Source: a virus (Duplodnaviria; Heunggongvirae; Uroviricota; Caudoviricetes). From it: a stretch of DNA of 22,196 bases. The notes beneath the pieces were generated by a model. That model was not told the DNA's origin. It searched no databases and saw nothing but the letters and a program-made list of their open reading frames with translations. Below are positions 1 through 22,129 of this stretch, piece by piece; within the stretch, counting starts at the first letter, position 1, and each line of letters opens with the position of its first letter. Position numbers and translations under genes: made by a program. The stretch lies in IMG/VR virus record IMGVR_UViG_2703718769_000014; one strand, 5' to 3'.

Positions 1-1284
1 TTACTTCTTCGCCTCTGCAACCACTTTACTACCCACGCCGCGGTTATTGTATTCCCACATGCGGTTGTAGTTAGTGTCATTCAGATTGCGCTGTATTTCG
101 TCGTTATCATCTACGCTGCCGGTATTACCCGCAAACGGACGATTAGAGATCACCGCATCGGCCCACGGTTTAGCCGTGTTAAAACCTTCGTTGATGGCGC
201 TATCACGGATCACCACCTGACCGTTGGTATTGGCATCAACATCCAGCGAGCGGCCCAGTTGCGCCACACCATCACCGAAAGCATTGAAACGGCTGTTTAC
301 GGCGAGGAAACCGTAGTAAATGTTGGACAGCGTAGCCGGTGCAAACACATACGCTTCTTGCTGAGTACGTGAGTTCACCACGCGGAATTCGGTGTTATCG
401 AACACCACTGCGCCGCGACCAGAAACGATATCCACATCCCCTTCAATGTAGCTGTTGGTCACCAGCGTACGCGGCTGACGATTTGTTTCCAGACGGTTCT
501 GCACACCGCTGTTGGTGACAAAGAAGGTGTTCTGACGACCGAGAATGTTAACGTTGTTAATCTGTACCTGGTCACCATCAGTACGCAGTGCCACCGCCGG
601 ATGGTTACCTGCATCTACGCTATCGCCCAGCGTGTTTTCGATGGTCAGATTTTGCAGTTGCAGGCCATTGTTTTGTGACCAGAAGACCGCAGAGCAGAGA
701 ACACCGATACTGTCGCTGCGTTTGCTCTGGCAGCTATCGTACATATACCACGCTGGTTTACCTGGCATATATTTGCCGCGCGGGTTGACGTCGTGACGCC
801 AGTCGGCAGGGCTCATGCCACCATCAAGGGAAAGCCCAATCTTCACATCAATCGGTTTTTCACCTGTACCGTACAGAGTAATTCCACCCGGAGCGGCAGG
901 GACATATACCGTTCCCTGATACTCACCAGGCATCACGGCAATATACTGGCGCTTGTTGGTACGCTTGATAATTGCCGCATCTACCGCCGCCTGAATCGTG
1001 GTATGCGTTACACCTTGAGTGCCCGCCGGGCCGACAACAAAGTCAGGTTGCGCAGGCAGGGTAATCGGGGAAGGATTCCACGCTGCAGCACCTGGTGTCA
1101 GGGATGCAAAATAGTGTTGAGCATCGAAATTCTGCGCTTCTTTTGCCGACAGAATCGGGCGAGAAGAGGTACCAGGCGCGGTTTGATCAGAAGGACGTTG
1201 ATCGGGCGGGGTTGAGCTACAGGCGGTCAGCGTCACGCCAAAAGCCAATGCCAGCGCCAGACGGGAAACTGAAAATGTGTTCAC
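1..1284 (-). CDS. ybhC: YbhC-like outer-membrane lipoprotein (pectinesterase-family fold), chromosomal gene flanking the lambda attachment site
   Basis: Complete 427-aa ORF, ATG at 1284 and stop at 1-3. N-terminal signal peptide with lipobox LTAC. Sequence recognised as E. coli YbhC, the gene adjacent to att-lambda. Confidence 0.88.
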   Translation of the reverse strand: MNTFSVSRLALALAFGVTLTACSSTPPDQRPSDQTAPGTSSRPILSAKEAQNFDAQHYFASLTPGAAAWNPSPITLPAQPDFVVGPAGTQGVTHTTIQAAVDAAIIKRTNKRQYIAVMPGEYQGTVYVPAAPGGITLYGTGEKPIDVKIGLSLDGGMSPADWRHDVNPRGKYMPGKPAWYMYDSCQSKRSDSIGVLCSAVFWSQNNGLQLQNLTIENTLGDSVDAGNHPAVALRTDGDQVQINNVNILGRQNTFFVTNSGVQNRLETNRQPRTLVTNSYIEGDVDIVSGRGAVVFDNTEFRVVNSRTQQEAYVFAPATLSNIYYGFLAVNSRFNAFGDGVAQLGRSLDVDANTNGQVVIRDSAINEGFNTAKPWADAVISNRPFAGNTGSVDDNDEIQRNLNDTNYNRMWEYNNRGVGSKVVAEAKK

Positions 1285-1308: not shown

Positions 1309-1412
1309 AAAAATGAATCCGTTGAAGCCTGCTTTTTTATACTAAGTTGGCATTATAAAAAAGCATTGCTTATCAATTTGTTGCAACGAACAGGTCACTA
1401 TCAGTCAAAATA
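1309..1412. other. attL of a lambda-type prophage: bacterial B arm, 15-bp common core GCTTTTTTATACTAA (1323-1337), phage P' arm with arm-type Int and IHF binding region
   Basis: Exact lambda core followed by GTTGGCATTATAAAAAAGCATTGCTTATCAATTTGTTGCAACGAACAGGTCACTATCAGTCAAAATAAAATCATTATTTG, recalled as the lambda P' arm; bacterial-type sequence GAAGCCTGC on the ybhC side. Confidence 0.9.
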
Positions 1413-1418
1413 AAATCA

Positions 1419-2489
1419 TTATTTGATTTCAATTTTGTCCCACTCCCTGCCTCTGTCATCACGATACTGTGATGCCATGGTGTCCGACTTATGCCCGAGA
1501 AGATGTTGAGCAAATTTATCGCTTATCTGCTTCTCATAGAGTCTTGCAGACAAACTGCGCAACTCGTGAAAGGTTGGCGGATCCCCTTCGAAGGAGAGAC
1601 CTGATGCTTTTCGTGCGCGCATAAAATACCTTGATACTGTGCCGGATGAAAGCGGTTCACGACGAGTAGATGCAATTATGGTTTCTCCGCCAAGAATCTT
1701 TTTGCATTTATCAAGTGTTTCCTTCATTGATATCCCGAGAGCATCAACATGCAATGTTGTTGGGATGGCAATTTTTACGCCTGTTTTGCTTTGCTCGACA
1801 TAAAGATATCCATCTACGATATCAGACCACTTCATTTCGCATAAATCACCAACTCGCTGCCCGGTAACAACAGCCAGTTCCATTGCAAGTCTAAGCCAAC
1901 ATGGTGATGATTCTGCTGCTTGATAAATTTTCAGGTATTCGTCAGCCGTAAGTCTTGATCTCCTTACCTCTGATTTTGCAGCGCGAGTGGCTGCGACCGG
2001 GTTTGTTGTTATATGGCCTTCAGCCATAGCCTCTCGGAATGCATCGCTCAGTGTTGATCTGATTAACTTGGCTGATGCCGCCTTTCCCTCGTCTATGTAT
2101 CCATTGAGCATTGCCGCAATTTCTTTTGTGGTGATGTCTTCAAGTGGAGCATCAGGCAGACCCCTCCTTATTGCTTTAATTTTGCTCATGTAATTTATGA
2201 GTGTCTTCTGCTTGATTCCTCTGCTGGCCAGGATTTTTTCGTAGCGATCAAGCCATGAATGTAACGTAACGGAATTATCACTGTTGATTCTCGCTGTCAG
2301 AGGCTTGTGTTTGTGTCCTGAAAATAACTCAATGTTGGCCTGTATAGCTTCAGTGATTGCGATTCGCCTGTCTCGGCCTAATCCAAACTCTTTACCCGTC
2401 CTTGGGTCCCTGTAGCAGTAATATCCATTGTTTCTTATATAAAGGTTAGGGGGTAAATCCCGGCGCTCATGACTTCGCCTTCTTCCCAT
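1419..2489 (-). CDS. int: Lambda-type tyrosine integrase Int
   Basis: 356-aa ORF essentially matching recalled lambda Int (MGRRRSHERRDLPPNLYIRNNGYYCYRDPRTGKEF... ending ...DDRGREWDKIEIK); placed immediately inside attL, 3' end overlapping xis. Confidence 0.97.
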   Translation of the reverse strand: MGRRRSHERRDLPPNLYIRNNGYYCYRDPRTGKEFGLGRDRRIAITEAIQANIELFSGHKHKPLTARINSDNSVTLHSWLDRYEKILASRGIKQKTLINYMSKIKAIRRGLPDAPLEDITTKEIAAMLNGYIDEGKAASAKLIRSTLSDAFREAMAEGHITTNPVAATRAAKSEVRRSRLTADEYLKIYQAAESSPCWLRLAMELAVVTGQRVGDLCEMKWSDIVDGYLYVEQSKTGVKIAIPTTLHVDALGISMKETLDKCKKILGGETIIASTRREPLSSGTVSRYFMRARKASGLSFEGDPPTFHELRSLSARLYEKQISDKFAQHLLGHKSDTMASQYRDDRGREWDKIEIK

Positions 2490-3403: not shown

Positions 3404-3650
3404 TGCCGCCTCCGTGACATGTCACAGAGATTTATATCATTAATTTTGTTTCGTGCCAGCCTTTGGTCACCCAGCATTGTGAGTCACCATTACACGGGCA
3501 TGAATTAACAGGAACTCTCTCGCCGCACTTACCGCAACGTTTTCTGCTGATCGATTTTATACGTCAGCGCACACGTGCATCATCCTGGCGGCTCAGTAAC
3601 GCGATGTACTCACCAAACTCGTAAGGCGCATGCCTGAAGCGGCGCGTGGC

Positions 3651-3770
3651 TCAGTTACGATCCAGCATTTCAATTTCCTGAGCATCAAGTACAAGCTCCA
3701 GCTTACGCATACCGGATGATGCTTGCTTGGCTCTCTGATCGACTTTGCGCTCTGCTGATGATTTAGCCAT
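3651..3770 (-). CDS. Possible small basic protein, 39 aa (MAKSSAERKVDQRAKQASSGMRKLELVLDAQEIEMLDRN); speculative
   Basis: ATG at 3770 with a weak AGGA upstream; charged, helical-looking composition; sits between the two cargo genes on the same strand. Confidence 0.25.
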   Translation of the reverse strand: MAKSSAERKVDQRAKQASSGMRKLELVLDAQEIEMLDRN

Positions 3771-3965
3771 TCTGCTTTTCCTGCATTAGGAGAAAGACAA
3801 TCATGGCGGCGCGGATACTTCCGGTATCTTTTTACTCGATATTACCCTTCAATGGCACATACAAGAAGAGAGCCATCAACAGGAGTGAGTGAGGAATCGA
3901 CAACCAGCAACGCTTAATTATCTATAGTGTCGTATTTGCTTCATAAAATATGGCGAATAACACAA

Positions 3966-3998
3966 AGCCCGCAGCAGCTCATTGTGCGGGCTTTTCTT
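3966..3998. terminator. Terminator-like hairpin: 8-bp stem AGCCCGCA/TGCGGGCT, 11-nt loop, then TTTTCTT
   Basis: Inverted repeat seen directly, lying 66 nt beyond the 3' end of the 204-aa gene. U-rich on the plus strand and partly T-rich on the minus strand, so possibly bidirectional. Confidence 0.5.
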
Positions 3999-4063
3999 AT
4001 ACATACTTCCTAGAGATAATTCTATGGAGGCATTAAATTAATACTGTCATTGGTAATATCATA

Positions 4064-4678
4064 TTATCTAAAAGTCTTTCCACTTTTAACGTCTAGGTAT
4101 ATTCTGTTCGACAACGTCATTCCTCCGCAATATGTGAAATAGATGTTTTTCCCCTTATTGCTTGATGCCATCCACCCTCCGATTTCCTTAAAGTCGCTTT
4201 CCGTGCAGACCCCTTCGTTTATTAACTTCCTAGCTGCCGAAGAAAACTCTTTTTTGTATATACGGTAGTCATCAGATCCTTTGATTAAAGTATCATCTCC
4301 GCTCGCATTTTCAGCAGGATCTGATGGCCTTTCACTGCTAAGATCACTAAGTTTAACCCATTCTGAAAACTTGCCATTGACGATTCCGTTTTTTCTTGTG
4401 CAGGATTTATTACCTTCTTTAATATATTCGCTTTCCCCTCCCACACATGAGGCTGAATATGGCTCAGTTATACGAACCCATTCACCTTTTTTTTCTAGAA
4501 AATCTACGCCTTCCCTGAAAAATAGTTTCCCAGCCACTCCACATTTACTTGAAGGGCAGGTATGTCTTTCCGTTCGATCAACAACAACCCAAAGTCTTGA
4601 TTCATTTTTTGCCATTGCCGATGGTATTTGAGATGAGACAATTAACGTAAGCCCTAAAATTAGTATTGATTTTTTCAT
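4064..4678 (-). CDS. Secreted or periplasmic cysteine-rich hypothetical protein, 204 aa, exo-xis cargo
   Basis: N-terminal signal peptide MKKSILILGLTLIVSSQIPSAMA (predicted cleavage after AMA), seven Cys in the mature part, AT-rich codon usage, no recognisable lambda homolog. Confidence 0.6.
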   Translation of the reverse strand: MKKSILILGLTLIVSSQIPSAMAKNESRLWVVVDRTERHTCPSSKCGVAGKLFFREGVDFLEKKGEWVRITEPYSASCVGGESEYIKEGNKSCTRKNGIVNGKFSEWVKLSDLSSERPSDPAENASGDDTLIKGSDDYRIYKKEFSSAARKLINEGVCTESDFKEIGGWMASSNKGKNIYFTYCGGMTLSNRIYLDVKSGKTFR

Positions 4679-4976
4679 TGTAATTTCCTTTTACTTTTTA
4701 CAAAGCGTTTAATCATGGCTGATTATCTTTAAGCGTAGTAACAGCCTTGTGCGAAACATGTTACCAAATCGCCATTTCAGTGTATCCGCAGTTAGGCTGC
4801 CACTTCAAGGATTCCTAATTACATGGTACGTAAGCGTAAAATCCCGTTGGTTGTCGGGTAATAACTCTGATCAAATCTCCCTTGTCTTTTGCTCTTACGT
4901 ATGCAGCTCTTGTGTATTCAACCCAGGCCTCCAGTTCAGCAATACGCTTACTTCCATCCGAGATAACACCTTCTAC

Positions 4977-5228
4977 TCACGCTGCTCGTTGAGTTTTGAT
5001 TTTTGCTGTCTCCAGCTCAACACGCAGTTTCCTCACCGTTAGCGCAATATCCTCGTTCTCCTGGTCGCGGCGTTTGATGTACTGCTGGTTTCTTTCCCGT
5101 TCATCCAGCAGTGTCAGCACAATCGATGGTGTTACCAGCTCATGGAAAAGGTCCGCGTCAAATCCCCAGTTGTCATGCATTGCCTGCTCTGCCGCTTCAC
5201 GCAGTGCCTGAGAGTGAATTACGCTCAC
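4977..5228 (-). CDS. Exo-xis region protein, 83 aa; the reading frame continues for 53 further codons past an in-frame TGA down to 4818
   Basis: ORF translationally coupled to the upstream TraR-like gene (ATGA overlap at 5225-5228). The frame stays open from 4976 down to a TAG at 4815-4817, see findings. Confidence 0.5.
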   Translation of the reverse strand: MSVIHSQALREAAEQAMHDNWGFDADLFHELVTPSIVLTLLDERERNQQYIKRRDQENEDIALTVRKLRVELETAKIKTQRAA

Positions 5229-5446
5229 TTCGAACCTCTCTGTTTACTGATAAGTTCCAGATCCTCCTGGCAACTTGCACAAGTCCGACAACCCTGAACG
5301 GCCAGGCGTCTTCGTTCATCTATCGGATCGCCACACTCACAACAATGAGTGGCAGATATAGCCTGGTGGTTCAGGCGGCGCATTTTTATTGCTGTGTTGC
5401 GCTGTAATTCTTCAATTTCTGATGCTGAATCAATGATGTCTGCCAT
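5225..5446 (-). CDS. TraR/DksA-family C4 zinc-finger protein, 73 aa (lambda orf73-like)
   Basis: Translation has CxxC-x17-CxxC (C35/C38 and C56/C59) in a 73-aa protein, the size and motif of the phage/plasmid TraR family; position matches orf73 of the lambda exo-xis region. Confidence 0.8.
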   Translation of the reverse strand: MADIIDSASEIEELQRNTAIKMRRLNHQAISATHCCECGDPIDERRRLAVQGCRTCASCQEDLELISKQRGSK

Positions 5447-5544
5447 CTTTCATTAATCCCTGAATTGTTGGTTAATACGCTTGAGGGTGAATGCGAATAA
5501 TAAAAAAGGAGCCTGTAGCTCCCTGATGATTTTGCTTTTCATGT

Positions 5545-5826
5545 TCACCGTTCCTTAAAAACGCCGTTTAACATGCCGATTGCTAGACTTAAATGAGTCG
5601 GTGTGAATCCCATCAGCGTTACCGTTTCGCGGTGCTTCTTCAGTACGCTACGGCAAATGTCATCGACGTTTTTATCCGGAAACTGCTGTCTGGCTTTTTT
5701 GATTTCAGAATTAGCCTGACGGGCAATGCTGCGAAGGGCGTTTTCCTGCTGAGGTGTCACTGAACAAGCCCCATGTCGGCAAGCATAAGCACACAGAATA
5801 TGAAGCCCGCTGCCAGAAAAATGCAT
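5545..5826 (-). CDS. Exo-xis region hypothetical protein (93 aa as listed; more likely 71 aa from the GTG at 5760)
   Basis: C-terminal 70 residues look like a real helical protein (TPQQENALRSIARQANSEIKKARQQF...); the N-terminal 22 codons overlap a hydrophobic 27-codon ORF in another frame, so the start is ambiguous. Confidence 0.5.
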   Translation of the reverse strand: MHFSGSGLHILCAYACRHGACSVTPQQENALRSIARQANSEIKKARQQFPDKNVDDICRSVLKKHRETVTLMGFTPTHLSLAIGMLNGVFKER

Positions 5827-7010: not shown

Positions 7011-7217
7011 CTAATTATTGGACGAAATTGGTTTTTGCTTTGGTTTAGTTAGCCTAGCAATCAAGCCAGAGGCAATAATGATGATCCAAGCAATTTGATG
7101 CAATGCTACTCCAATATAAGAACCTTTATAGATAATAAAGGCATAGATCGCTAGAAACGAAATAAATATCCATAACGAAAGTTGATAAATTTTGGCGCGC
7201 ATATTTAATCCAATCAA
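7011..7217 (-). CDS. Small integral membrane protein (two predicted transmembrane helices), 62-68 aa
   Basis: Two hydrophobic helices (LSLWIFISFLAIYAFIIY and IAWIIIIASGLIA) and a basic C-terminal tail; AT-rich; divergent from the lipoprotein operon. Confidence 0.4.
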   Translation of the reverse strand: MIGLNMRAKIYQLSLWIFISFLAIYAFIIYKGSYIGVALHQIAWIIIIASGLIARLTKPKQKPISSNN

Positions 7218-10720: not shown

Positions 10721-11803
10721 TTAGAACTGGTAAACCATACCTACAGCAACGATATCATCGGTAGCAACGCCAGATGCTTTCGTGAAATCGCTCTTATCAA
10801 TCAGGTTGATTTTGTAATCAACAAAAGTGGACATATTTTTGTTGAAGTAATAGGTTGCACCTACATCAATATATTCAACCAGGTCCTGATCACCCCACGC
10901 ACCCAAGTCTTTTCCTTTAGATTGCAGGTAAGCAACGGACGGACGCAGACCGAAGTCGAACTGATATTGTGCAACTACTTCGAAGTTTTGTGCTTTGTTG
11001 GCAATATGGTTATTACCAAAAACAGTCATGTTCTGGGTTTCAGAATAGGTGGTAGCCAGATAGATGTTGTTCGCATCATATTTCAGACCAGCTGCCCATA
11101 CTTCAGCATTTTGACCAGATGCATTCAGGCTGTTGTTACCGTAGATAACCTGATTATTAGTGCGGTCAGATTTAGCATAGGTTGCACCTACACCGAATCC
11201 TTCATACTCATAAGTAGTGGAGAAACCGAAACCATCACCATTAGCTTCAGTTACGTCAGTGCGGTCATTTTTACCCTGATACTGAGCAGCAAAGTTCAGA
11301 CCATCAACCAGACCAAAGAAGTCATTGTTACGATAAGTTGCAACACCTGTGGTGCGACCAGTCATGAATACATCTGTTTGGGTCCAGGTATCGCCACCGA
11401 ATTCTGGCAGAACGTCGGTCCATGCACCAATATCGTATGCTACACCGTAGTTACGGCCATAATCGATGGAGCCGTAGTCACCGAATTTCAGGCCAGCGAA
11501 GGCAAGACGGGTTTTATCTTTGGAGGAACCTTGAGATTCAGCGCGGTTGCCTTTGAATTCATATTCCCACTGACCGAAACCAGTCAGTTGATCGTTGATT
11601 TGGGTTTCACCTTTGAAGCCAAGACGGGCATAAGTAGTATCACCATCATCTGCATCATTAGAGGAGAAGTAGTGCTTAGCATTAACTTTCCCGTACAGAT
11701 CCAGCTTGTTACTGTCTTTATTATAAATTTCAGCTGCCTGAGCAGACATCGCCATCAGTACTGATGCAGCTACAGCAGAAATTGCCACTGTTAATTTTTT
11801 CAT
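10721..11803 (-). CDS. nmpC: NmpC/OmpD-type general porin (OmpC/OmpF superfamily), prophage-encoded
   Basis: Signal peptide [40 protein letters not shown]-terminus, PEFGGD loop motif, C-terminal VGMVYQF beta-signal. The track ORF begins 20 codons upstream of the true start. Confidence 0.9.
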
Positions 11804-12228
11804 CGTGAGCCCTTTTTTTGAACTATTATTAAAAAATGATGTCACTGCGCGATAAATATTCATCTAATCAATGTGATTATTTCAAGATGTAAGTTTTGGT
11901 TTCTCATTTGATTTGTGAAGTAGATCTCTATTTTTATCTGAACTTTTTCTATCGAATCCTATTCATGGCTCTTGGCTGAATAAAAATAAATCTATTAGCC
12001 AATTTATATTAATGGCTGTTATTTATAAGCGCTCTATAATTTGAAGATTCAATTTAAACCAGCTAAAAATAACGCTGGAAATTATTTGTTGGTTATTTGT
12101 TGAGATTTGCTTATGTATTTGTAGTGGTGTTTTCAATACTCGGTAGCATTCTCGCAAATATCATTTAGTGGTTTACGTACGTAAAAAATTGGTTATGCTG
12201 TTAAGAGTGGTTACTTCGTCACACAGCT

Positions 12229-12262
12229 TAAACCCGCCGTCGAGCGGGTTTTTCCATTTTTT
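12229..12262 (+). terminator. Rho-independent terminator (tR'-like) upstream of the lysis cassette
   Basis: AACCCGC-CGTCGA-GCGGGTT followed by TTTTCCATTTTTT, about 130 nt upstream of the holin start. Confidence 0.7.
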
Positions 12263-12390
12263 GAGTCTCGATATTAGCTGATAACCCAATACCTGAGTTA
12301 TTCACTGACTCCGAGTCTGTTACGTTTCTGCTTTTTTGCGATACGTTGTATTCCCTCAATTTACACCCGCTTTGTCTGCGAGGTGGGGTT

Positions 12391-12606
12391 ATGAAATCCA
12401 TGGATAAGTTAACAACGGGTGTCGCCTATGGCACCTCAGCAGGTAGTGCCGGTTACTGGTTTTTACAGCTGCTCGATAAAGTCACGCCCTCACAGTGGGC
12501 AGCAATAGGTGTGCTGGGTAGCCTGGTATTTGGCCTGCTGACGTACCTGACAAACCTTTATTTCAAGATTAAAGAAGATAAGCGCAAGGCTGCGAGAGGT
12601 GAATAA
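12391..12606 (+). CDS. essD: Phage-21-type class II holin (pinholin S21), dual-start motif MKSM
   Basis: 71-aa product [26 protein letters not shown]... with two transmembrane segments and a charged C-terminus; the track ORF is extended upstream. Confidence 0.9.
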
Positions 12607-13103
12607 TGCCTCCATCATTACGAAAAGCCGTTGCTGCTGCTATTGGTGGCGGAGCAATTGCTATAGCATCAGTGTTAATTACTGGCCCAAGTGGTAACGA
12701 TGGTCTGGAAGGTGTCAGCTACGTACCATACAAAGATATCGTTGGCGTATGGACTGTATGTCACGGACACACCGGAAAAGACATCATGCTCGGTAAAACG
12801 TATACCAAAGCAGAATGCAAAGCACTCTTGAATAAAGACCTTGCCACTGTCGCCAGACAAATTAACCCGTACATCAAAGTCGATATACCGGAAACAACGC
12901 GCGGCGCTCTTTACTCATTCGTTTACAACGTGGGTGCTGGCAATTTCAGAACATCGACGCTTCTTCGCAAAATAAACCAGGGCGATATCAAAGGCGCATG
13001 TGATCAGCTACGTCGCTGGACATATGCTGGCGGTAAGCAATGGAAAGGTCTCATGACTCGTCGTGAGATTGAGCGTGAAATCTGTTTGTGGGGTCAGCAA
13101 TGA
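12606..13103 (+). CDS. rrrD: SAR endolysin (signal-anchor-release lysozyme, R21 type)
   Basis: 165-aa ORF with N-terminal SAR domain [27 protein letters not shown] followed by a lysozyme-like domain; start overlaps the holin stop (TAATG). Confidence 0.92.
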
Positions 13104-13561
13104 ACAGAGTAACCGCGATTATCTCCGCTCTGGTTATCTGCATCATCGTCTACCTGTCATGGGCTGTTAATCATTACCGTGATAACGCCATTACCTACAA
13201 AGCCCAGCGCGACAAAAATGCCAGAGAACTGAAGCTGGCGAACGCGGCAATTACTGACATGCAGATGCGTCAGCGTGATGTTGCTGCGCTCGATGCAAAA
13301 TACACGAAGGAGTTAGCTGATGCGAAAGCTGAAAATGATGCTCTGCGTGATGATGTTGCCGCTGGTCGTCGTCGGTTGCACATCAAAGCAGTCTGTCAGT
13401 CAGTGCGTGAAGCCACCACCGCCTCCGGCGTGGATAATGCAGCCTCCCCCCGACTGGCAGACACCGCTGAACGGGATTATTTCACCCTCAGAGAGAGGCT
13501 GATCACTATGCAAAAACAACTGGAAGGAACCCAGAAGTATATTAATGAGCAGTGCAGATAG
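13100..13561 (+). CDS. Rz: Rz inner-membrane spanin
   Basis: Start [29 protein letters not shown] overlapping the endolysin stop; N-terminal transmembrane segment and coiled-coil periplasmic domain; matches recalled lambda Rz. Confidence 0.88.
13320..13502 (+). CDS. Rz1: Rz1 outer-membrane lipoprotein spanin, embedded in the +1 frame of Rz
   Basis: Lipobox VVVGC and proline-rich mature part ([21 protein letters not shown]) entirely inside Rz. Confidence 0.8.
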
Positions 13562-13592
13562 AGTTGCCCATATCGATGGGCAACTCATGCAA

Positions 13593-13886
13593 TTATTGTG
13601 AGCAATACACACGCGCTTCCAGCGGAGTATAAATGCCTAAAGTAATAAAACCGAGCAATCCATTTACGAATGTTTGCTGGGTTTCTGTTTTAACAACATT
13701 TTCTGCGCCGCCACAAATTTTGGCTGCATCGACAGTTTTCTTCTGCCCAATTCCAGAAACGAAGAAATGATGGGTGATGGTTTCCTTTGGTGCTACTGCT
13801 GCCGGTTTGTTTTGAACAGTAAACGTCTGTTGAGCACATCCTGTAATAAGCAGGGCCAGCGCAGTAGCGAGTAGCATTTTTTTCAT
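13593..13886 (-). CDS. bor: Bor lipoprotein (serum-resistance lipoprotein of lambda)
   Basis: 97-aa ORF MKKMLLATALALLITGCAQQTFTVQNKPAAVAPKETITHHFFVSGIGQKKTVD... matching recalled lambda Bor; lipobox ITGC. Confidence 0.92.
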   Translation of the reverse strand: MKKMLLATALALLITGCAQQTFTVQNKPAAVAPKETITHHFFVSGIGQKKTVDAAKICGGAENVVKTETQQTFVNGLLGFITLGIYTPLEARVYCSQ

Positions 13887-14176
13887 GGTGTTATTCCCGA
13901 TGCTTTTTGAAGTTCGCAGAATCGTATGTGTAGAAAATTAAACAAACCCTAAACAATGAGTTGAAATTTCATATTGTTAATATTTATTAATGTATGTCAG
14001 GTGCGATGAATCGTCATTGTATTCCCGGATTAACTATGTCCACAGCCCTGACGGGGAACTTCTCTGCGGGAGTGTCCGGGAATAATTAAAAACGATGCAC
14101 ACAGGGTTTAGCGCGTACACGTATTGCATTATGCCAACGCCCCGGTGCTGACACGGAAGAAACCGGACGTTATGAT

Positions 14177-14710
14177 TTAGCGTGGAAAGATTTGTGTAGT
14201 GTTCTGAATGCTCTCAGTAAATAGTAATGAATTATCAAAGGTATAGTAATATCTTTTATGTTCATGGATATTTGTAACCCATCGGAAAACTCCTGCTTTA
14301 GCAAGATTTTCCCTGTATTGCTGAAATGTGATTTCTCTTGATTTCAACCTATCATAGGACGTTTCTATAAGATGCGTGTTTCTTGAGAATTTAACATTTA
14401 CAACCTTTTTAAGTCCTTTTATTAACACGGTGTTATCGTTTTCTAACACGATGTGAATATTATCTGTGGCTAGATAGTAAATATAATGTGAGACGTTGTG
14501 ACGTTTTAGTTCAGAATAAAACAATTCACAGTTTAAATCTTTTCGCACTTGATCGAATATTTCTTTAAAAATGGCAACCTGAGCCATTGGTAAAACCTTC
14601 CATGTGATACGAGGGCGCGTAGTTTGCATTATCGTTTTTATCGTTTCAATCTGGTCTGACCTCTTTGTGTTTTGTTGATGATTTATGTCAAATATTAGGA
14701 ATGTTTTCAC
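14177..14710 (-). CDS. Hypothetical protein of the lambda right arm downstream of bor, 177 aa
   Basis: ORF present at the corresponding position of the lambda right arm as I recall it; AT-rich; no family recognised. Confidence 0.55.
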
Positions 14711-14872
14711 TTAATAGTATTGGTTGCGTAACAAAGTGCGGTCCTGCTGGCATTCTGGAGGGAAATACAACCGACAGATGTATGTAAGGCCAACGTGCTC
14801 AAATCTTCATACAGAAAGATTTGAAGTAATATTTTAACCGCTAGATGAAGAGCAAGCGCATGGAGCGACAAA

Positions 14873-15079
14873 ATGAATAAAGAACAATCTGCTGATGATC
14901 CCTCCGTGGATCTGATTCGTGTAAAAAATATGCTTAATAGCACCATTTCTATGAGTTACCCTGATGTTGTAATTGCATGTATAGAACATAAGGTGTCTCT
15001 GGAAGCATTCAGAGCAATTGAGGCAGCGTTGGTGAAGCACGATAATAATATGAAGGATTATTCCCTGGTGGTTGACTGA
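14873..15079 (+). CDS. Small hypothetical protein, 68 aa (YbcW-like by size and position)
   Basis: 68-aa ORF with Shine-Dalgarno GGAG upstream; present at the same place in the lambda right arm and DLP12. Confidence 0.5.
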
Positions 15080-15243
15080 TCACCATAACTGCTAATCATT
15101 CAAACTATTTAGCCTGTGACAGAGCCAACACGCAGTCTGTCACTGTCAGGAAAGTGGTAAAACTGCAACTCAATTACTGCAATGCCCTCGTAATTAAGTG
15201 AATTTACAATATCGTCCTGTTCGGAGGGAAGAACGCGGGATGT

Positions 15244-15438
15244 TCATTCTTCATCACTTTTAATTGATGTATATGCTCTCTTTTCTGACGTTAGTCTCCG
15301 ACGGCAGGCTTCAATGACCCAGGCTGAGAAATTCCCGGACCCTTTTTGCTCAAGAGCGATGTTAATTTGTTCAATCATTTGGTTAGGAAAGCGGATGTTG
15401 CGGGTTGTTGTTCTGCGGGTTCTGTTCTTCGTTGACAT
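15244..15438 (-). CDS. Small basic DNA-binding-like protein, 64 aa (YlcI-like)
   Basis: N-terminal Arg/Thr-rich segment MSTKNRTRRTTTRNIRFPNQMIEQINIAL suggests a ribbon-helix-helix fold; size matches the DLP12 small ORF upstream of cos. Confidence 0.55.
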   Translation of the reverse strand: MSTKNRTRRTTTRNIRFPNQMIEQINIALEQKGSGNFSAWVIEACRRRLTSEKRAYTSIKSDEE

Positions 15439-15599
15439 GAGGTTGCCCCGTATTCAGTGTCGCTGATTTGTATTGTCTGAAGTTGTTTTTACGTTAAGTT
15501 GATGCAGATCAATTAATACGATACCTGCGTCATAATTGATTATTTGACGTGGTTTGATGGCGTAGATGCACGTTGTGACATGTAGATGATAATTATTAT

Positions 15600-15830
15600 C
15601 ATTTTGCGGGTCCTTTCCGGCGATCCGACAGGTTACGGGGCGGCGACCTCGCGGGTTTTCGCTATTTATGAAAATTTTCCGGTTTAAGGCGTTTCCGTTC
15701 TTCTTCGTCATAACTTAATGTTTTTATTTAAAATACCCTCTGAAAAGAAAGGAAGCGACAGGTGCTGAAAGCGAGCTTTTTGGCCTCTGTCGTTTCCTTT
15801 CTCTGTTTTTGTCCGTGGAATGAACAATGG
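15600..15830. other. cos site: cosQ, cosN (12-nt cohesive end GGGCGGCGACCT at 15638-15649), cosB
   Basis: Sequence ...CGGGTCCTTTCCGGCGATCCGACAGGTTACGGGGCGGCGACCTCGCGGGTTTTCGCTATTTATGAAAATTTTCCGG... matches the recalled lambda genome ends and runs directly into nu1. Confidence 0.9.
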
Positions 15831-16372
15831 AAGTCAACAAAAAGCAGCTGGCTGACATTTTCGGTGCGAGTATCCGTACCATTCAGAACTGGCAGGAACA
15901 GGGAATGCCCGTTCTGCGAGGCGGTGGCAAGGGTAATGAGGTGCTTTATGACTCTGCCGCCGTCATAAAATGGTATGCCGAAAGGGATGCTGAAATTGAG
16001 AACGAAAAGCTGCGCCGGGAGGTTGAAGAACTGCGGCAGGCCAGCGAGGCAGATCTCCAGCCAGGGACTATTGAGTACGAACGCCATCGACTTACGCGTG
16101 CGCAGGCCGACGCACAGGAACTGAAGAATGCCAGAGACTCCGCTGAAGTGGTGGAAACCGCATTCTGTACTTTCGTGTTGTCGCGGATCGCAGGTGAAAT
16201 TGCCAGTATTCTCGACGGGATCCCCCTGTCGGTGCAGCGGCGTTTTCCGGAACTGGAAAACCGACATGTTGATTTCCTGAAACGGGATATCATCAAAGCC
16301 ATGAACAAAGCAGCCGCGCTGGATGAACTGATACCGGGGTTGCTGAGTGAATATATCGAACAGTCAGGTTAA
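15827..16372 (+). CDS. nu1: Terminase small subunit Nu1
   Basis: 181-aa ORF MEVNKKQLADIFGASIRTIQNWQEQGMPVLRGGGKGNEVLYDSAAVIKWYAERD... matching recalled lambda Nu1. Confidence 0.95.
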   Translation: MEVNKKQLADIFGASIRTIQNWQEQGMPVLRGGGKGNEVLYDSAAVIKWYAERDAEIENEKLRREVEELRQASEADLQPGTIEYERHRLTRAQADAQELKNARDSAEVVETAFCTFVLSRIAGEIASILDGIPLSVQRRFPELENRHVDFLKRDIIKAMNKAAALDELIPGLLSEYIEQSG

Positions 16373-17408
16373 CAGGCTGCGGCATTTTGTCCGCGCCGGG
16401 CTTCGCTCACTGTTCAGGCCGGAGCCACAGACCGCCGTTGAATGGGCGGATGCTAATTACTATCTCCCGAAAGAATCCGCATACCAGGAAGGGCGCTGGG
16501 AAACACTGCCCTTTCAGCGGGCCATCATGAATGCGATGGGCAGCGACTACATCCGCGAGGTGAATGTGGTGAAGTCTGCCCGTGTTGGTTATTCCAAAAT
16601 GCTGTTGGGTGTTTATGCCTACTTCATAGAGCATAAGCAGCGCAACACACTTATCTGGTTGCCGACGGATGGTGATGCCGAGAACTTTATGAAAACCCAC
16701 GTTGAGCCGACCATCCGCGATATTCCGTTGCTGCTGGCGCTGGCTCCGTGGTATGGCAAAAAGCACCGGGATAACACGCTCACCATGAAGCGTTTTTCCA
16801 ATGGTCGTGGCTTCTGGTGCCTGGGCGGTAAAGCGGCAAAAAACTACCGTGAAAAGTCGGTGGATGTGGCGGGTTATGATGAACTTGCTGCCTTTGATGA
16901 GGATATTGAACAGGAAGGCTCTCCGACGTTCCTTGGCGACAAACGTATTGAAGGCTCGGTCTGGCCAAAGTCCATCCGTGGCTCCACCCCCAAAGTGAGA
17001 GGCACCTGCCAGATTGAGCGTGCAGCCAGTGAATCCCCGCATTTTATGCGTTTTCATGTTGCCTGTCCGCACTGCGGGGAGGAGCAGTACCTTAAATTTG
17101 GCGATAAAGAGACGTCGTTTGGCCTCAAATGGACGCCGGATGATCCCTCCAGCGTGTTTTATCTCTGCGAACATAATGCCTGCGTCATCCGCCAGCAGGA
17201 ACTGGACTTCACTGATGCCCGTTATATCTGCGAAAAGACCGGGATCTGGACCCGTGATGGCATTCTCTGGTTTTCGTCATCCGGTGAAGAGATTGAGCCG
17301 CCGGACAGCGTGACCTTTCACATCTGGACGGCGTACAGCCCGTTCACCACCTGGGTGCAGATTGTCAAAGACTGGATGAAAACGAAAGGGGATACCTTCT
17401 GCCCGTAA
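16347..17408 (+). pseudogene. A: Terminase large subunit A, truncated after about 350 of 641 codons
   Basis: Translation follows recalled lambda gpA from MNISNSQVNRLRHFVRAGLRSLFRPEPQTAVEWADANYYLPKESAY to ...[11 protein letters not shown], then diverges (FCP*) at the junction with the tail-fibre fragment. Confidence 0.9.
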
Positions 17409-17409
17409 G

Positions 17410-18594
17410 GTGAATGGTAAGGCGCTTTCAGCGGATATAACACTGACGCCGAAAGATATTGGTACGCTTAACTCAACAACAATGTCATTCAGCGGTGGTG
17501 CTGGTTGGTTCAAATTAGCAACGGTAACCATGCCACAGGCGAGTTCTGTTGTTTCAATTACGTTGATTGGTGGCGCGGGATTTAACGTGGGGTCACCTCA
17601 ACAGGCAGGTATATCTGAACTTGTTTTGCGTGCAGGTAATGGTAATCCGAAGGGGATTACTGGTGCTTTATGGCAGCGCACATCGACAGGGTTTACAAAT
17701 TTTGCCTGGGTCAATACATCTGGTGATACTTACGATATTTACGTTGCAATCGGAAATTATGCGACTGGTGTAAATATTCAATGGGATTATACCAGTAATG
17801 CCAGCGTGACGATTCATACGTCACCAGCATATTCTGCTAATAAGCCGGAAGGGTTAACGGACGGTACAGTTTATTCACTCTATACGCCATCAGAGCAGTT
17901 TTATCCGCCTGGCGCACCAATCCCGTGGCCATCAGATACCGTTCCGTCTGGCTATGCCCTGATGCAGGGGCAGACTTTTGACAAATCTGCATACCCGAAA
18001 CTTGCAGCCGCTTATCCGTCAGCCGTGATCCCTGATATGCGTGGCTGGACGATTAAGGGCAAACCCGCCAGTGGTCGTGCCGTATTGTCTCAGGAACAGG
18101 ACGGCATTAAATCGCACACCCACAGCGCCAGCGCATCCAGTACGGATTTGGGGACGAAAAACACATCGTCGTTTGATTACGGAACCAAATCCACGAATAA
18201 CACCGGGGCGCATACCCATAGTATTAGCGGGACTGCAAATAGTGCCGGTGCGCACCAACACAAGAGTTCCGGTGCATTTGGTGGCACGAACACGAGCATT
18301 TTCCCTAATGGTTATACCGCGATTTCAAATCTAAGCGCGGGGATTATGAGCACAACAAGCGGTAGTGGCCAGACTCGTAATGCAGGGAAGACATCATCAG
18401 ATGGTGCTCATACCCACTCGCTGTCCGGCACTGCTGCAAGCGCAGGCGCACATGCACATACTGTCGGTATTGGTGCTCATACGCACTCCGTTGCGATTGG
18501 CTCACACGGACACACCATCACCGTTAACGCTGCTGGTAACGCGGAAAACACCGTCAAAAACATCGCATTTAACTATATTGTGAGGCTTGCATAA
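17410..18594 (+). pseudogene. stf: Side tail fibre (Stf) C-terminal fragment with His-x-His repeat region; no proper start
   Basis: Frame opens right after the truncated A gene; contains repeated GAHTHS / GAHAHT / GSHGHT motifs typical of the distal part of lambda/T4-type long tail fibres; followed by tfa with an ATAATG overlap. Confidence 0.8.
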
Positions 18595-19175
18595 TGGCAT
18601 TCAGAATGAGTGAACAACCACGGACCATAAAAATTTATAATCTGCTGGCCGGAACTAATGAATTTATTGGTGAAGGTGATGCATATATTCCGCCTCATAC
18701 AGGTCTGCCAGCAAACAGTACCGATATTGCACCGCCAGATATTCCGGCTGGCTTCGTGGCTGTTTTCAACAGTGATGAGTCATCGTGGCATCTTGTTGAA
18801 GACCATCGGGGTAAAACAGTTTATGACGTGGCATCAGGGGACGCGTTATTTATTTCTGAACTCGGCTCATTACCGGAAAATGTTACCTGGTTATCCCCGG
18901 AAGGGGAGTTTCAGAAGTGGAACGGCACAGCCTGGGTGAAGGATACGGAAGCAGAAAAACTGTTCCGGATCCGGGAGGTGGAAGAAACAAAAAACAGCCT
19001 GATGCAGGTAGCCAGTGAGCATATAGCGCCGCTTCAGGATGCTGTGGATCTGGAAATCGCAACGGAGGAAGAAACCTTGTTGCTGGAAGCCTGGAAAAAG
19101 TATCGGGTATTGCTGAACCGTGTTGATACGTCAACTGCACAGGATATTGAATGGCCAGTAGCACCTATAGGGTAA
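18594..19175 (+). CDS. tfa: Tail fibre assembly protein Tfa
   Basis: 193-aa [65 protein letters not shown]... matching recalled lambda Tfa. Confidence 0.9.
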
Positions 19176-19267
19176 ATTCGTAATGATTACCTAAATACGT
19201 TATTCTTTTGTTCAAAAAGTGATTTTGCTATAGATAGGGAGTATGTTCTTGGATTAAGAATAAAAAT

Positions 19268-19290
19268 CGCCATGAAAGAGCTTCATGGCG
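19268..19290 (-). terminator. Perfect 9-bp stem hairpin CGCCATGAA-AGAGC-TTCATGGCG with a T-run on the minus strand
   Basis: Inverted repeat seen directly; the minus-strand RNA would end in a U-tract (ATTTTTATT), implying a leftward transcript from the AT-rich tract. Confidence 0.4.
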
Positions 19291-20033
19291 AGTACATAAA
19301 CGTACAAAATGTGATGAAAGTAGAGTGGCGTAAGCCACTATATTAAGATGTGACAATAGCGAAGAAAAGTAAATAACATTTTATGGACGTTTAATTGTTA
19401 ATTATAAAAACTAGAGTGCCCGATATTGTTTACCTTGCTTTAAAATAATGTACTCAAACCAAATTTTTGAGCTAAAAGCTCAAATAATATAAATGCAATA
19501 ATAATGTTTAATAAGACAATTAGCTTGCTTTGTATTTTCATTTCGGAATACTGTTAAGTAACTTTGATGACCCTAACAATAGATCGGAATTTTCTTAGAG
19601 TCAATGGTCACTGTTTTTGCTTGCAAAGCAAATGTTTTGGTGGTTATAAGTTGTCTTAATATAGTCACGCATGCAACTTGTTCCATGCGGAGATTAAAGA
19701 TTGGAATATAACGCTAAGATGGAATTAAATTACATTTGCAATAATCAATTTATTATTACTCAATAATTACCGATATTATTATTGTAAATTAATCATTAGA
19801 GTGCAAAAAGAAATGTAACGGCAAAATAAGAGGACGATAGCTGAGAAAAAAGCGTGCTTTCCCAATCTGGGGCAAATCACGTCTGAATGACACCTGAAAA
19901 CAGGTGGTAGCCTCAAGAAGGCTTGGAATATTCTTCTTTAATGTTATGTAATTCATTGATTTTTCGTGTACGATTTAAAGACATTTATTCCAAGAAAAAT
20001 TTTTAACTCTTTGATTTTTCGACTCTGTATCAT

Positions 20034-20095
20034 CGGTCTCGAAAACCGGAGTAGGGGCAACTCTACCGGGGGTTCAAATCCCCCTCTCTCCGCCA
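20034..20095 (+). tRNA. 3'-terminal 62-nt fragment of tRNA-Ser(CGA) (serU-like): anticodon loop, variable arm, T-arm, acceptor 3' strand; the 5' 28 nt are missing
   Basis: CGGTCTCGAAAACCGGAGTAGGGGCAACTCTACCGGGGGTTCAAATCCCCCTCTCTCCGCCA matches the recalled 3' part of E. coli serU; upstream sequence does not encode the D-arm or 5' acceptor strand. Confidence 0.7.
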
Positions 20096-20679
20096 CTTTA
20101 TCAATGACTTATCTCCCGACTTCCCGCCTTGCTTTTCCTAAACAGAACAATCGTAGAATATTCTTGAAGGGTTAGATCGTCACTGTTTTCTGTTCGATAC
20201 TGTGACATTCAGCACTTGATTCGCTATGGATCTGACAGGAAGGTTTTGAGCGAAAATTTGCAGTTATTCAGTCGTTTTCTTATCGGTCACCATTATTCTT
20301 TTAGACATTGATCCTACAAAGCTGCCGCAAAGTTGGTGGTGGGAACTGAAGTTGCGTAGAGAAGGGGTCAATACCCGGAGGCAAACATGGGCTGGCAAAA
20401 GTGTAGCGGTATTAGGCGCAGCTATTTAGCCTAGTTATGTTTTATGAAAACTTGATATCATATAAGTGTCTTACTTATTGGCTGTAAATAAGTTTTTCCT
20501 AAGGAATTGTTTCTTGAGTATCATTTGTAACTGTAACGGAATTTATAATCCTTTGCTTTATTGTTACGGTATTTTTTATCACACCCTATTTTTTATGTGG
20601 TTTTTTATACTGAAGTTTGGCAAAGTGAACTTTATATGCATATACTTCATCCTGGTTTCAGTTAAGTTGGGTGGATGAT

Positions 20680-21423
20680 ATGGCAACTACATGTTCAGTT
20701 ATATTGATTTTGGAGTCCTTTGATGTTTATTTCGGAAAAGAGAGTGTGTTTCTGGAGAGAGGTTCATCTGTACTTGTCGACTCTAGCTCTAGAGATTTTT
20801 TCCTGACATATCCTGAAAGAGTGATAGTGGCGGATTTTGGCGCTGAGTTTATTAGTCGCTATTTGAAAGCTAATAACTTAAGGGATATTTCTGATTGTAG
20901 GGAATATCCATCTTATTTAAAAATAAACTTTGCTGACTTCAGTTTAATTAAAGGATTAATTAGTTGGGCTAATCACTGTGCTGAATACATAGAAATTTTT
21001 GATGAGTCTATTGCTTTTACATGTCTCTCTGCATTTTCTTCTGAAAAACAATTTGGAGTATTTCTGTTTGAATGTTTGAAAAGCACAGGGGCTAAAGTTA
21101 AAACGATTATTCATACGGATTTATCTGCACCATGGCGTCTTAAGGATATATCATCAAGATTATATCTCAGCGAAAGTTTACTAAAGAGGAAATTGAAAGA
21201 AGAGGGGGTATCATTCAGTAAGATCATACTTGATGAGAGGATGCAAATGGCTGAATATTTACTCAGCACTCGTTGTTATCCTATTAGTAAAGTAGCTAAG
21301 GTCTGTGGTTATGCCAGTGTCTCATACTTTACTTATGTATTTAGACGTTATTTTGGTGTTTCTCCAAGTCAATACTCTCAGAGCAGTTCAGAAAGTAAAA
21401 TTCTTACTCACCAGGGAATCTGA
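20680..21423 (+). CDS. AraC/XylS-family transcriptional regulator (AppY/Rns-like), AT-rich
   Basis: C-terminal dual helix-turn-helix signature (WRLKDISSRLYLSESLLKRKLKEEGVSFSKIILDERMQMA...VAKVCGYASVSYFTYVFRRYFGVSPSQY); ATG at 20680 preferred over the GTG at 20671; low GC. Confidence 0.85.
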   Translation: MATTCSVILILESFDVYFGKESVFLERGSSVLVDSSSRDFFLTYPERVIVADFGAEFISRYLKANNLRDISDCREYPSYLKINFADFSLIKGLISWANHCAEYIEIFDESIAFTCLSAFSSEKQFGVFLFECLKSTGAKVKTIIHTDLSAPWRLKDISSRLYLSESLLKRKLKEEGVSFSKIILDERMQMAEYLLSTRCYPISKVAKVCGYASVSYFTYVFRRYFGVSPSQYSQSSSESKILTHQGI

Positions 21424-21464
21424 TCATTGTTCTTGCCCCCTTATTTCCAGACAGGGGGTGTATC

Positions 21465-21932
21465 TTAAGTTAACGTTACCCGCTGACGTCGATATTCTCG
21501 CGGAGAGCGATAACCCAACGCACTGTGCGGATGGTTTTCATTGTAATGTTCGATCGCCACTGCAAGATTATGCAATGCCGTTCTTACATTCGGTTTCGGC
21601 ATGAACGCGATGTAGTCTTCCTTCATCGTTTTCACGAACCTTTCTGCCATTCCATTACTCTGAGGACTGCTGATTGCCGTTGTGCAGGGCTCCAGATTCA
21701 ACTCTCTGGCGAACTGCCATGTTTCATGCGCTCTATACGCTGAACCGTTATCTGTCAGCCACTGGATGGACTGTTCCGGTACTTTATCGCCAAAGCGTTT
21801 TTCTATCGCTCCTAACATGACATCCTGCACTGTCGCTTTATCGTAACCTCCCGTGCTTGCGGCCCAGTCTATGGCTTCACGATCGCAACAGTCCAGGGCG
21901 AACGTAACACGCAGTTTTGAATCGCCACGGGT
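21465..21932 (-). pseudogene. IS2-group (IS3 family) transposase orfB, C-terminal fragment
   Basis: Frame reads ...[76 protein letters not shown]...[14 protein letters not shown], resembling the recalled IS2 InsD C-terminal half; no N-terminal part, and the frame is closed by a stop at 21933. Confidence 0.75.
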
Positions 21933-21980
21933 TTAACAGACACCTCAGAGTCATTTAAGATGGCTTAAAGAGAGGTGCCC

Positions 21981-22126
21981 ATGAGCGGTAAGCGTTATCC
22001 CGAAGAGTTTAAAACTGAAGCAGTCAAACAGGTTGTTGATCGCGGTTATTCTGTTGCCAGCGTTGCAACACGTCTCGATATCACCACCCACAGCCTTTAT
22101 GCCTGGATAAAGAAGTACGGTCCGGA
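21981..22126 (+). pseudogene. IS3-family transposase orfA, N-terminal fragment (helix-turn-helix region)
   Basis: MSGKRYPEEFKTEAVKQVVDRGYSVASVATRLDITTHSLYAWIKKYGPD is a typical IS3-family OrfA N-terminus; the frame then leaves transposase-like sequence at the junction with the integrase 3' end. Confidence 0.7.
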
Positions 22127-22129
22127 TTA

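Follow-up and report, generated by a model that had tools for sequence, protein, structure and literature searches.

A serU fragment inside a lambda-type prophage

Our analysis indicated that the orphan 3' part of the tRNA-Ser(CGA) gene serU at 20034..20095 (plus strand) of the window, by which we mean the whole 22,196-nt stretch of DNA that was analysed, is very probably the core of a fossil, ectopic attR derived from a serU-integrating lambdoid phage, rather than a tRNA or the edge of an island. The surrounding structure (19839-20373) consists of a 195-bp phage arm, the 62-nt core, and 278 bp of host flank. Beyond the host flank follow, in this order, a truncated IS630, a PatE-type AraC gene, IS3-family debris, and a lambda-type attP arm. 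Today, the fossil attR most likely has no function and is carried as inert cargo.

The fragment (CGGTCTCGAAAACCGGAGTAGGGGCAACTCTACCGGGGGTTCAAATCCCCCTCTCTCCGCCA, plus strand) corresponds to positions 29-90 of the 90-nt serU gene and is identical to it at 62/62 nt in both a K-12-like genome and UTI89, where the intact gene sits between mtfA and yodB/zinT. At up to three mismatches, it was matched once in the window, with no match expected by chance (zero in 100 shuffles). Specifically, the identity begins at the second base on the 5' strand of the anticodon stem and ends with the encoded CCA, while the 28-nt 5' part of serU is gone and unrelated AT-rich DNA takes its place. The sequence-only reading of this DNA had reported a 62-nt identity to the 3' part of a serU-type tRNA-Ser with no 5' half, and this was borne out. 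It had bounded the fragment by the anticodon loop on the 5' side; the identity begins slightly further 5' than the loop, in the anticodon stem.

A functional tRNA-Ser is a complete cloverleaf with an acceptor 5' strand and D, anticodon, variable, and T arms, and the fragment does not provide one. ARAGORN called no tRNA anywhere in the window, nor at the corresponding block in the comparison loci L005, L007, L014, and L016. Likewise, no Rfam family matched over the fragment at the gathering score, and the sub-threshold matches there were tRNA-Ser look-alikes only (an antisense plastid trnS-region family and a tmRNA T-arm). At up to three mismatches, neither half of the fragment had another match in the window, and no relevant direct repeat was found in it.

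The resident prophage

The window begins in ybhC (1-1284, minus strand) and its right end nearly reaches ybhB, which together mark the classical lambda attachment locus of E. coli. The prophage between these two genes is defective and lambdoid. Its left junction carries an exact match to the lambda att core (GCTTTTTTATACTAA, 1331..1345, plus strand), beside which lies a lambda-type integrase gene (1419-2489, minus strand; Pfam Arm-DNA-bind_1 and Phage_integrase), and this core and integrase are the lambda-type att/int system that the prophage actually uses. No exact lambda core was found at the right end of the window. In strains RM10410, 181.1, and 13P477T, the right lambda junction (a lambda-like P arm plus the core) lies ~230 bp past the point where the window ends, with an exact core in 181.1 and one mismatch in RM10410; a deletion of the lambda attR was thereby ruled out. 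The fragment had been described as far from the lambda att site, which holds for the left junction but not for the right one, situated only ~2.3 kb to the right of the fragment and past the window end.

Near-identical copies of this prophage were detected in RM10410, IAI1, and ~100 further complete genomes. Its late region (10993-16654) is 96.5% identical to K-12 DLP12, over a stretch that corresponds to essD, rrrD, rzpD, bor, ybcV, ybcW, ylcI, and nohD. An OmpC/NmpC-type porin gene in this late region (10721-11863, minus strand) is full-length in the window, whereas in K-12 the homologous nmpC consists of two fragments joined together and is a pseudogene. In the region 16347-18594 (plus strand), the terminase large-subunit gene has kept the gpA ATPase domain alone and ends at 17408, and a tail-fibre C-terminal ORF starts at 17410, directly against the shortened terminase gene. 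The head and tail morphogenesis region has been wholly deleted, which renders the prophage defective, whereas its close relatives mEp332 and the prophage of strain 181.1 are complete. Elsewhere, a 2.2-kb segment (3639-5810) is missing from the otherwise 99.9% identical RM10410 prophage; a 204-aa ORF inside it (4064-4678, minus strand) has no Pfam match. The sole Rfam match at the gathering score was IS009 (218 bits; 18937-19135, plus strand), which falls wholly within the tail-fibre assembly gene at 18594-19175 and is probably a sign that the tfa coding sequence is conserved, not that a distinct RNA gene is present.

The phage arm and comparison with serU prophages

A family of lambdoid phages integrates into serU by means of a tyrosine integrase that is encoded beside attL. 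Once integrated, such a prophage has the displaced host copy of the final 62 nt of the tRNA at its tail-fibre end, after which host DNA resumes. The left side of the fragment matches what is found at such a prophage end. The C-terminus of the tail fibre, the tail-fibre assembly gene (18594-19175; Pfam Caudo_TAP), and an AT-rich spacer (together 18398..19838, plus strand) are collinear with the right end of a prophage that occupies serU. In strain 2020S05-013-18, whose serU prophage adjoins yodB, the same order of tail-fibre gene, tfa, AT-rich spacer, and breakpoint is seen, and window positions 18398-20373 match L017 2548-4524 at 96.9% over 1977 bp. Closer to the core, the 195-bp P arm (19839..20033, plus strand) is 97-98% identical to the DNA that lies directly left of the displaced tRNA copy at the serU attR sites of S7 and PEC240, both of which adjoin zinT/yodB.

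Within this P arm, the motif CTTGGAATAT occurs at 19922-19931 (plus strand) and 19985-19994 (minus strand), and we regard these two copies as candidate arm-type integrase sites; a further, more distant copy lies at 19700-19709 (plus strand). Three tandem copies of the same motif lie in the int-proximal arm of the S7 attL (L009 ~16795-16830), a layout that resembles the arm-type sites of lambda and suggests a comparable role. Across the whole window, four copies were found against 2.1 expected, a number that is not significant by itself.

The two ends of the S7 prophage allow the origin of the window copy to be specified. At the S7 attL, an intact tRNA-Ser(CGA) lies 27 bp from the tyrosine integrase gene, next to which is a small DUF4224 gene. 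In its 3' part, this tRNA has two compensating differences, both in the variable arm, and the DNA that comes after it is unrelated phage sequence. The window copy has the host bases at both variable-arm positions and, since the copy supplied by the phage at the S7 attL differs there, the window copy is the host-type, displaced one. The earlier interpretation of the fragment as a scar of a tRNA-targeting integrase, here of the tyrosine type, is supported, in that the displaced copy at the attR of serU prophages comprises the same 62 nt with an identical start. The S7 copies also bear on the position of strand exchange, which can be placed between the point where identity to the tRNA starts on the left and the first position at which the S7 attL and attR copies disagree. 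From this one lysogen, strand exchange would fall within 20034..20052 (plus strand), in the anticodon stem-loop (C)CGGT / CTCGAAA / ACCGG, which forms an inverted repeat about a 7-nt loop.

Independent records are consistent with the position of the core. In KU052038.1 ('phage SerU-LTIIb'), these same 62 nt, located at a serU attR that adjoins yodB, were labelled a pseudo tRNA-Ser by the depositor. Published prophage tables place the Sakai prophage Sp14 at serU/yodB (PMC8190617), and we observed Sp14, with tccP and espJ, adjoining yodB. Furthermore, the similarity of six sequenced temperate phages (of Klebsiella, Citrobacter, and E. coli) to the window is confined to positions around 20033-20111, which shows that independent att cores begin at the same base. 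The left edge of the core agrees to within 1 nt among the window, the true attR sites, and the six phage att cores.

With regard to its parts, the structure is therefore that of an attR: a serU 3' core with the usual start, a phage arm 5' of it, and serU-downstream host DNA 3' of it. Its location is not that of a working attR, which would lie at serU with a partner attL and a cognate integrase. It is found between ybhC and ybhB, without a partner copy and with only a lambda-type integrase, and we consequently consider it a fossil and ectopic attR, not a working boundary.

A second type of left arm was also observed, namely the one that precedes the core in copies of the block in thrW prophages (see below). 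The true serU attR adjoining zinT in GPEC1356 carries this same arm, so that both arm types are genuine arms of serU phages. In the second arm (O157:H7, L007 8652-8660; GPEC1356, L016 ~7170-7183), similarity to serU extends ~9-12 nt further 5' with a few mismatches, which points to two groups of serU phages with att cores of different length.

The host flank and its end

The match to the native serU locus extends past the CCA for a further 278 bp, to 20373. This flank (20096..20373, plus strand) belongs to the E. coli chromosome, where its native place is directly downstream of serU (the B' side), and it is contiguous with the tRNA part both in the unoccupied serU loci of the K-12-like genome and UTI89 and at the true attR sites. 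Core and flank together (340 bp) are 97.4% identical to the K-12-like and UTI89 loci and up to ~99.4% identical to some native loci, and the flank is matched in 5,423 of the 5,426 complete E. coli genomes. At the S7 attL, the 278-bp flank is missing after the tRNA; the phage attP thus does not include it, and the 278 bp are host DNA. Because host DNA occupies the place of a P' arm to the right of the core, the structure must once have been integrated at serU and must have been captured afterwards together with chromosome.

Native serU flanks part from the window exactly at 20373/20374, where the last ~57 bp of an IS630-family element begin (20374..20430, plus strand). This piece comprises the 3' end of the transposase gene and the right terminus, and is 98% identical to the element terminus in UPEC_U013 and many other records. 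An insertion of IS630 at a TA was considered for this junction and refuted: the terminus that is retained is the far (right) one, and it is not followed by serU flank. For the same reason, 20373/20374 is to be read as an illegitimate deletion or fusion junction and not as a transposition junction.

The AraC gene and IS debris

Downstream of the IS630 end lies a PatE-type cargo gene (20680..21423, plus strand) for an AraC/XylS-family regulator of 247 aa (Pfam HTH_AraC and HTH_18). With 33-37% GC, it is AT-rich and foreign-looking. Its product is identical at 245/247 residues to that of the copy in the thrW prophage of O157:H7 and, judging by its location, the O157:H7 counterpart is PatE/z0321. 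PatE (z0321, in OI-8) has been described as an activator of acid resistance (PMC10877973). The AraC gene is also present in the sequenced lambda-like phages mEp332, ev099, and PhiR70_1; the gene for an acid-resistance regulator of O157:H7 therefore travels in the genomes of sequenced lambda-like phages. As the late genes are common to the window and DLP12 at 96.5% identity, we also compared the block with the tfaX-appY region of DLP12. This candidate was rejected, given that there is no DNA homology past tfa, that DLP12 of K-12 lacks the serU fragment, and that the AraC protein shares 29% identity with AppY of DLP12.

The remaining ORFs are IS debris. On the minus strand, 21465..21917 is a fragment of an IS3-family transposase with a DDE 'integrase core', labelled by PGAP as 'integrase core domain-containing protein, partial', in which Pfam rve_3 (8e-17) and rve match 21465-21830. 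The sequence-only reading had taken 21465-21830 (minus strand) for a P4-type integrase fragment some 2 kb from the tRNA fragment; the Pfam matches identify it instead as an IS3-family DDE transposase, not a tyrosine integrase. It is followed by an IS3-type orfA fragment (21975..22127, plus strand), the helix-turn-helix N-terminus of a transposase (Pfam HTH_Tnp_1, 1.3e-14), which PGAP labels 'transposase, partial'.

Occurrence in other genomes and phages

The junction of flank, IS630, and AraC was present in 537 of the 5,426 complete E. coli genomes. At attLambda, the junction block was found in the window, RM10410, IAI1, and 181.1. In 13P477T (L008 8288-8985), an IS1A replaces 19924-20473, by which the core, the host flank, and the IS630 end have been lost and the AraC gene has been kept; this replacement indicates that the fossil is dispensable. 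The block is not confined to attLambda, as the thrW prophages of O157:H7 (Sp1/CP-933H region), E1433, and VG888 also carry it at their right end. In these thrW copies, the stretch from the core to the IS3 debris is 99.3% identical to that of the window and starts exactly at the core (20033/20034), whereas the left arm differs.

Nor is the block peculiar to the window prophage, since it is also part of the genomes of sequenced lambda-like phages. Positions 19176-21464 are at least 99% identical in mEp332, ev099, and PhiR70_1. The order in ev099 is tail fibre, tfa, block, transposase fragments, integrase, and excisionase, and in both ev099 and mEp332 the block lies between tfa and attP-int-xis. 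Compared with the window, mEp332 is 99% identical in int and 98.4% identical over 4.3 kb at the right end. It is a plaque-forming phage with lambda immunity (PMC3442831). The block is thus ordinary cargo of the non-essential, attP-adjacent region of lambda-like phages. Our literature search found no description of an ectopic serU fragment.

Origin of the block and alternative explanations

We propose that the tail-fibre end of a serU lysogen and the adjacent chromosome would have been captured into a phage genome, and two routes could have led to this. By the first, a serU prophage would have excised imprecisely, in the manner that gives rise to lambda-bio, and would later have gained a lambda-type int-att module. 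By the second, a phage with the lambda att would have undergone double recombination with a resident serU prophage, in which the left crossover could have fallen in the homologous and widely shared tail-fibre genes and the right one would have been illegitimate or IS-assisted in the host flank. Hybrid att and contiguous host DNA are indeed joined in the phage genomes of mEp332, ev099, and PhiR70_1, as is expected of a transducing-type genome. The reciprocal loss on the int/xis side that marks the bio type is not seen; the int-xis module is complete and has lambda specificity, so that either the module was replaced later or the capture took another route. Double recombination would be the more economical of the two routes. 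The block would later have been trimmed and passed between prophages by homologous exchange. Its two left arms may stem from an exchange that took place later within the 340-bp homology, or one ancestral locus may have been captured twice. Judged from its sequence, what the lineage carries at present would be a 340-bp patch of homology to the chromosome and possibly a still competent attR that the resident integrase does not use.

Several other explanations of the fragment were considered. The sequence-only reading had proposed that a separate tRNA-integrating island with a P4-type integrase was fused to the lambdoid prophage, with the fragment as its bounding repeat, and this now appears very unlikely. 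Orphan 3' tRNA fragments are typical of the repeats that bound islands and prophages, the neighbouring AraC gene is AT-rich and foreign-looking with IS debris nearby, and a P4-like integrase does lie downstream of the block in O157:H7, but as part of the adjacent thrW element. The window itself holds only the IS3-family DDE transposase (rve_3/rve) in place of an integrase of that kind, and the matching repeat that was suggested as a check is absent, as there is no second copy of the core. The flanks are not those of an island either: the left one is a lambdoid arm and a tail-fibre end collinear with serU prophages, the right one is serU-adjacent chromosome, and the block is packaged within free phage genomes. 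We judge it extremely unlikely that the fragment is a second functional attP of serU type, which would let the phage choose between attLambda and serU. Such a site should have the int-proximal arm of the S7 attL on the right of the core, where host flank (B') is found, as in an attR, and it would call for a serU-type integrase, of which there is none in the window or near the block in mEp332 and ev099, the only integrase being lambda-type. This weighs more than the fact that the core is intact and the arm, with its candidate arm-type sites, is kept in full length, or that sequenced temperate phages use this core as an att site. That the fragment is a decayed, phage-borne tRNA gene is hardly conceivable. 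Lambdoid phages often have tRNA genes of their own, and the S7 prophage does carry tRNA-Arg and tRNA-Ile/Met genes, but downstream of Q, and the fragment lies next to att; it is 100% identical to the host serU, is contiguous with 278 bp of serU-adjacent chromosome, and has a sharp 5' edge that coincides with known att cores.

A further possibility is that the ectopic attR still recombines, either with the attL at serU through Int/Xis of a co-resident serU prophage or through RecA over the 340 bp. The arm, core, and B' side are all intact, two genuine serU-phage arms are joined to one and the same core-to-IS3 block exactly at the core edge, and O157:H7 combines Sp14 at serU with the ectopic block at thrW. 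If true, either kind of recombination could swap prophage modules or invert parts of the chromosome. Through Int/Xis, it would provide a site-specific route by which prophage ends could be swapped between loci, or by which megabase inversions could arise; it would also account for the two left arms fused at the core edge. From the record orientations, the serU and ectopic copies appear to be inverted relative to each other. We searched with a chimeric query (intact serU, flank, IS630 end, and AraC upstream region) that would retrieve either the source locus or a product of recombination or inversion. The predicted product (mtfA - intact serU - flank - IS630 end - AraC) was present in 0 of the 5,426 genomes, as was the source arrangement of an intact serU followed by the IS630-AraC block. 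The exchange of arms is explained equally well by ordinary homologous recombination among lambdoid prophages, and we therefore consider continued activity unlikely and retain the fossil attR as our explanation of the fragment.

Comparison with known systems

For annotation, these results imply that the 62 nt should not be taken as an island boundary or as evidence of a serU island, and that the 'integrase core' ORF is IS debris. The window provides a natural example of a phage that carries a hybrid att together with host DNA from a former site, while a different integrase and site are in use today. Sequenced lambda-like phages and ~10% of complete E. coli genomes thereby document capture of host DNA along with changed or mixed integration specificity.

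The closest counterparts are the attR copies of serU prophages (Sp14/CP-933U, 'phage SerU-LTIIb', S7, GPEC1356, and 2020S05-013-18), which have the same 62 nt, left edge, and flank, and the same phage arm (97-98%) as the window. Each of these copies delimits a prophage at serU that is equipped with its own integrase and a partner attL. The window copy, in contrast, is enclosed in a prophage at attLambda and is unpaired, and its host flank breaks off after 278 bp. Pseudo-tRNAs are also known at the attR of cryptic prophages in K-12, namely pauD (argU, DLP12), ptwF (thrW, CP4-6), and pawZ (argW, CPS-53). Like the fragment described here, they are orphan 3' tRNA fragments that arose by integrase-mediated duplication at a prophage end. 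They mark the prophage boundary at its native site, however, whereas the remnant in the window has moved with the phage to another locus.

The specialised transducing phages lambda-bio and lambda-gal arise by imprecise excision. With them, the window shares a hybrid (P-O-B') att and adjacent host DNA in a packaged genome, near att. Unlike these phages, the window type is natural and fixed in a lineage, and its host insert amounts to just 278 bp; the int-xis-attP region is complete, with lambda specificity as opposed to the serU origin of the fossil, and the capture may have been a double recombination. A further parallel is found in moron-type cargo such as PatE of O157:H7 (OI-8/CP-933H) and AppY of DLP12, where an AT-rich AraC-family gene is likewise placed between the tail-fibre genes and att. 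Although the AraC gene of the window is 99% identical to the O157:H7 copy, this likeness concerns the AraC gene and not the fragment, which records only how this end of the genome came to be assembled. Taken by itself, the ectopic fragment is a fresh example of a familiar feature, a displaced attR copy of a tRNA 3' end, and represents no new mechanism or type of element.
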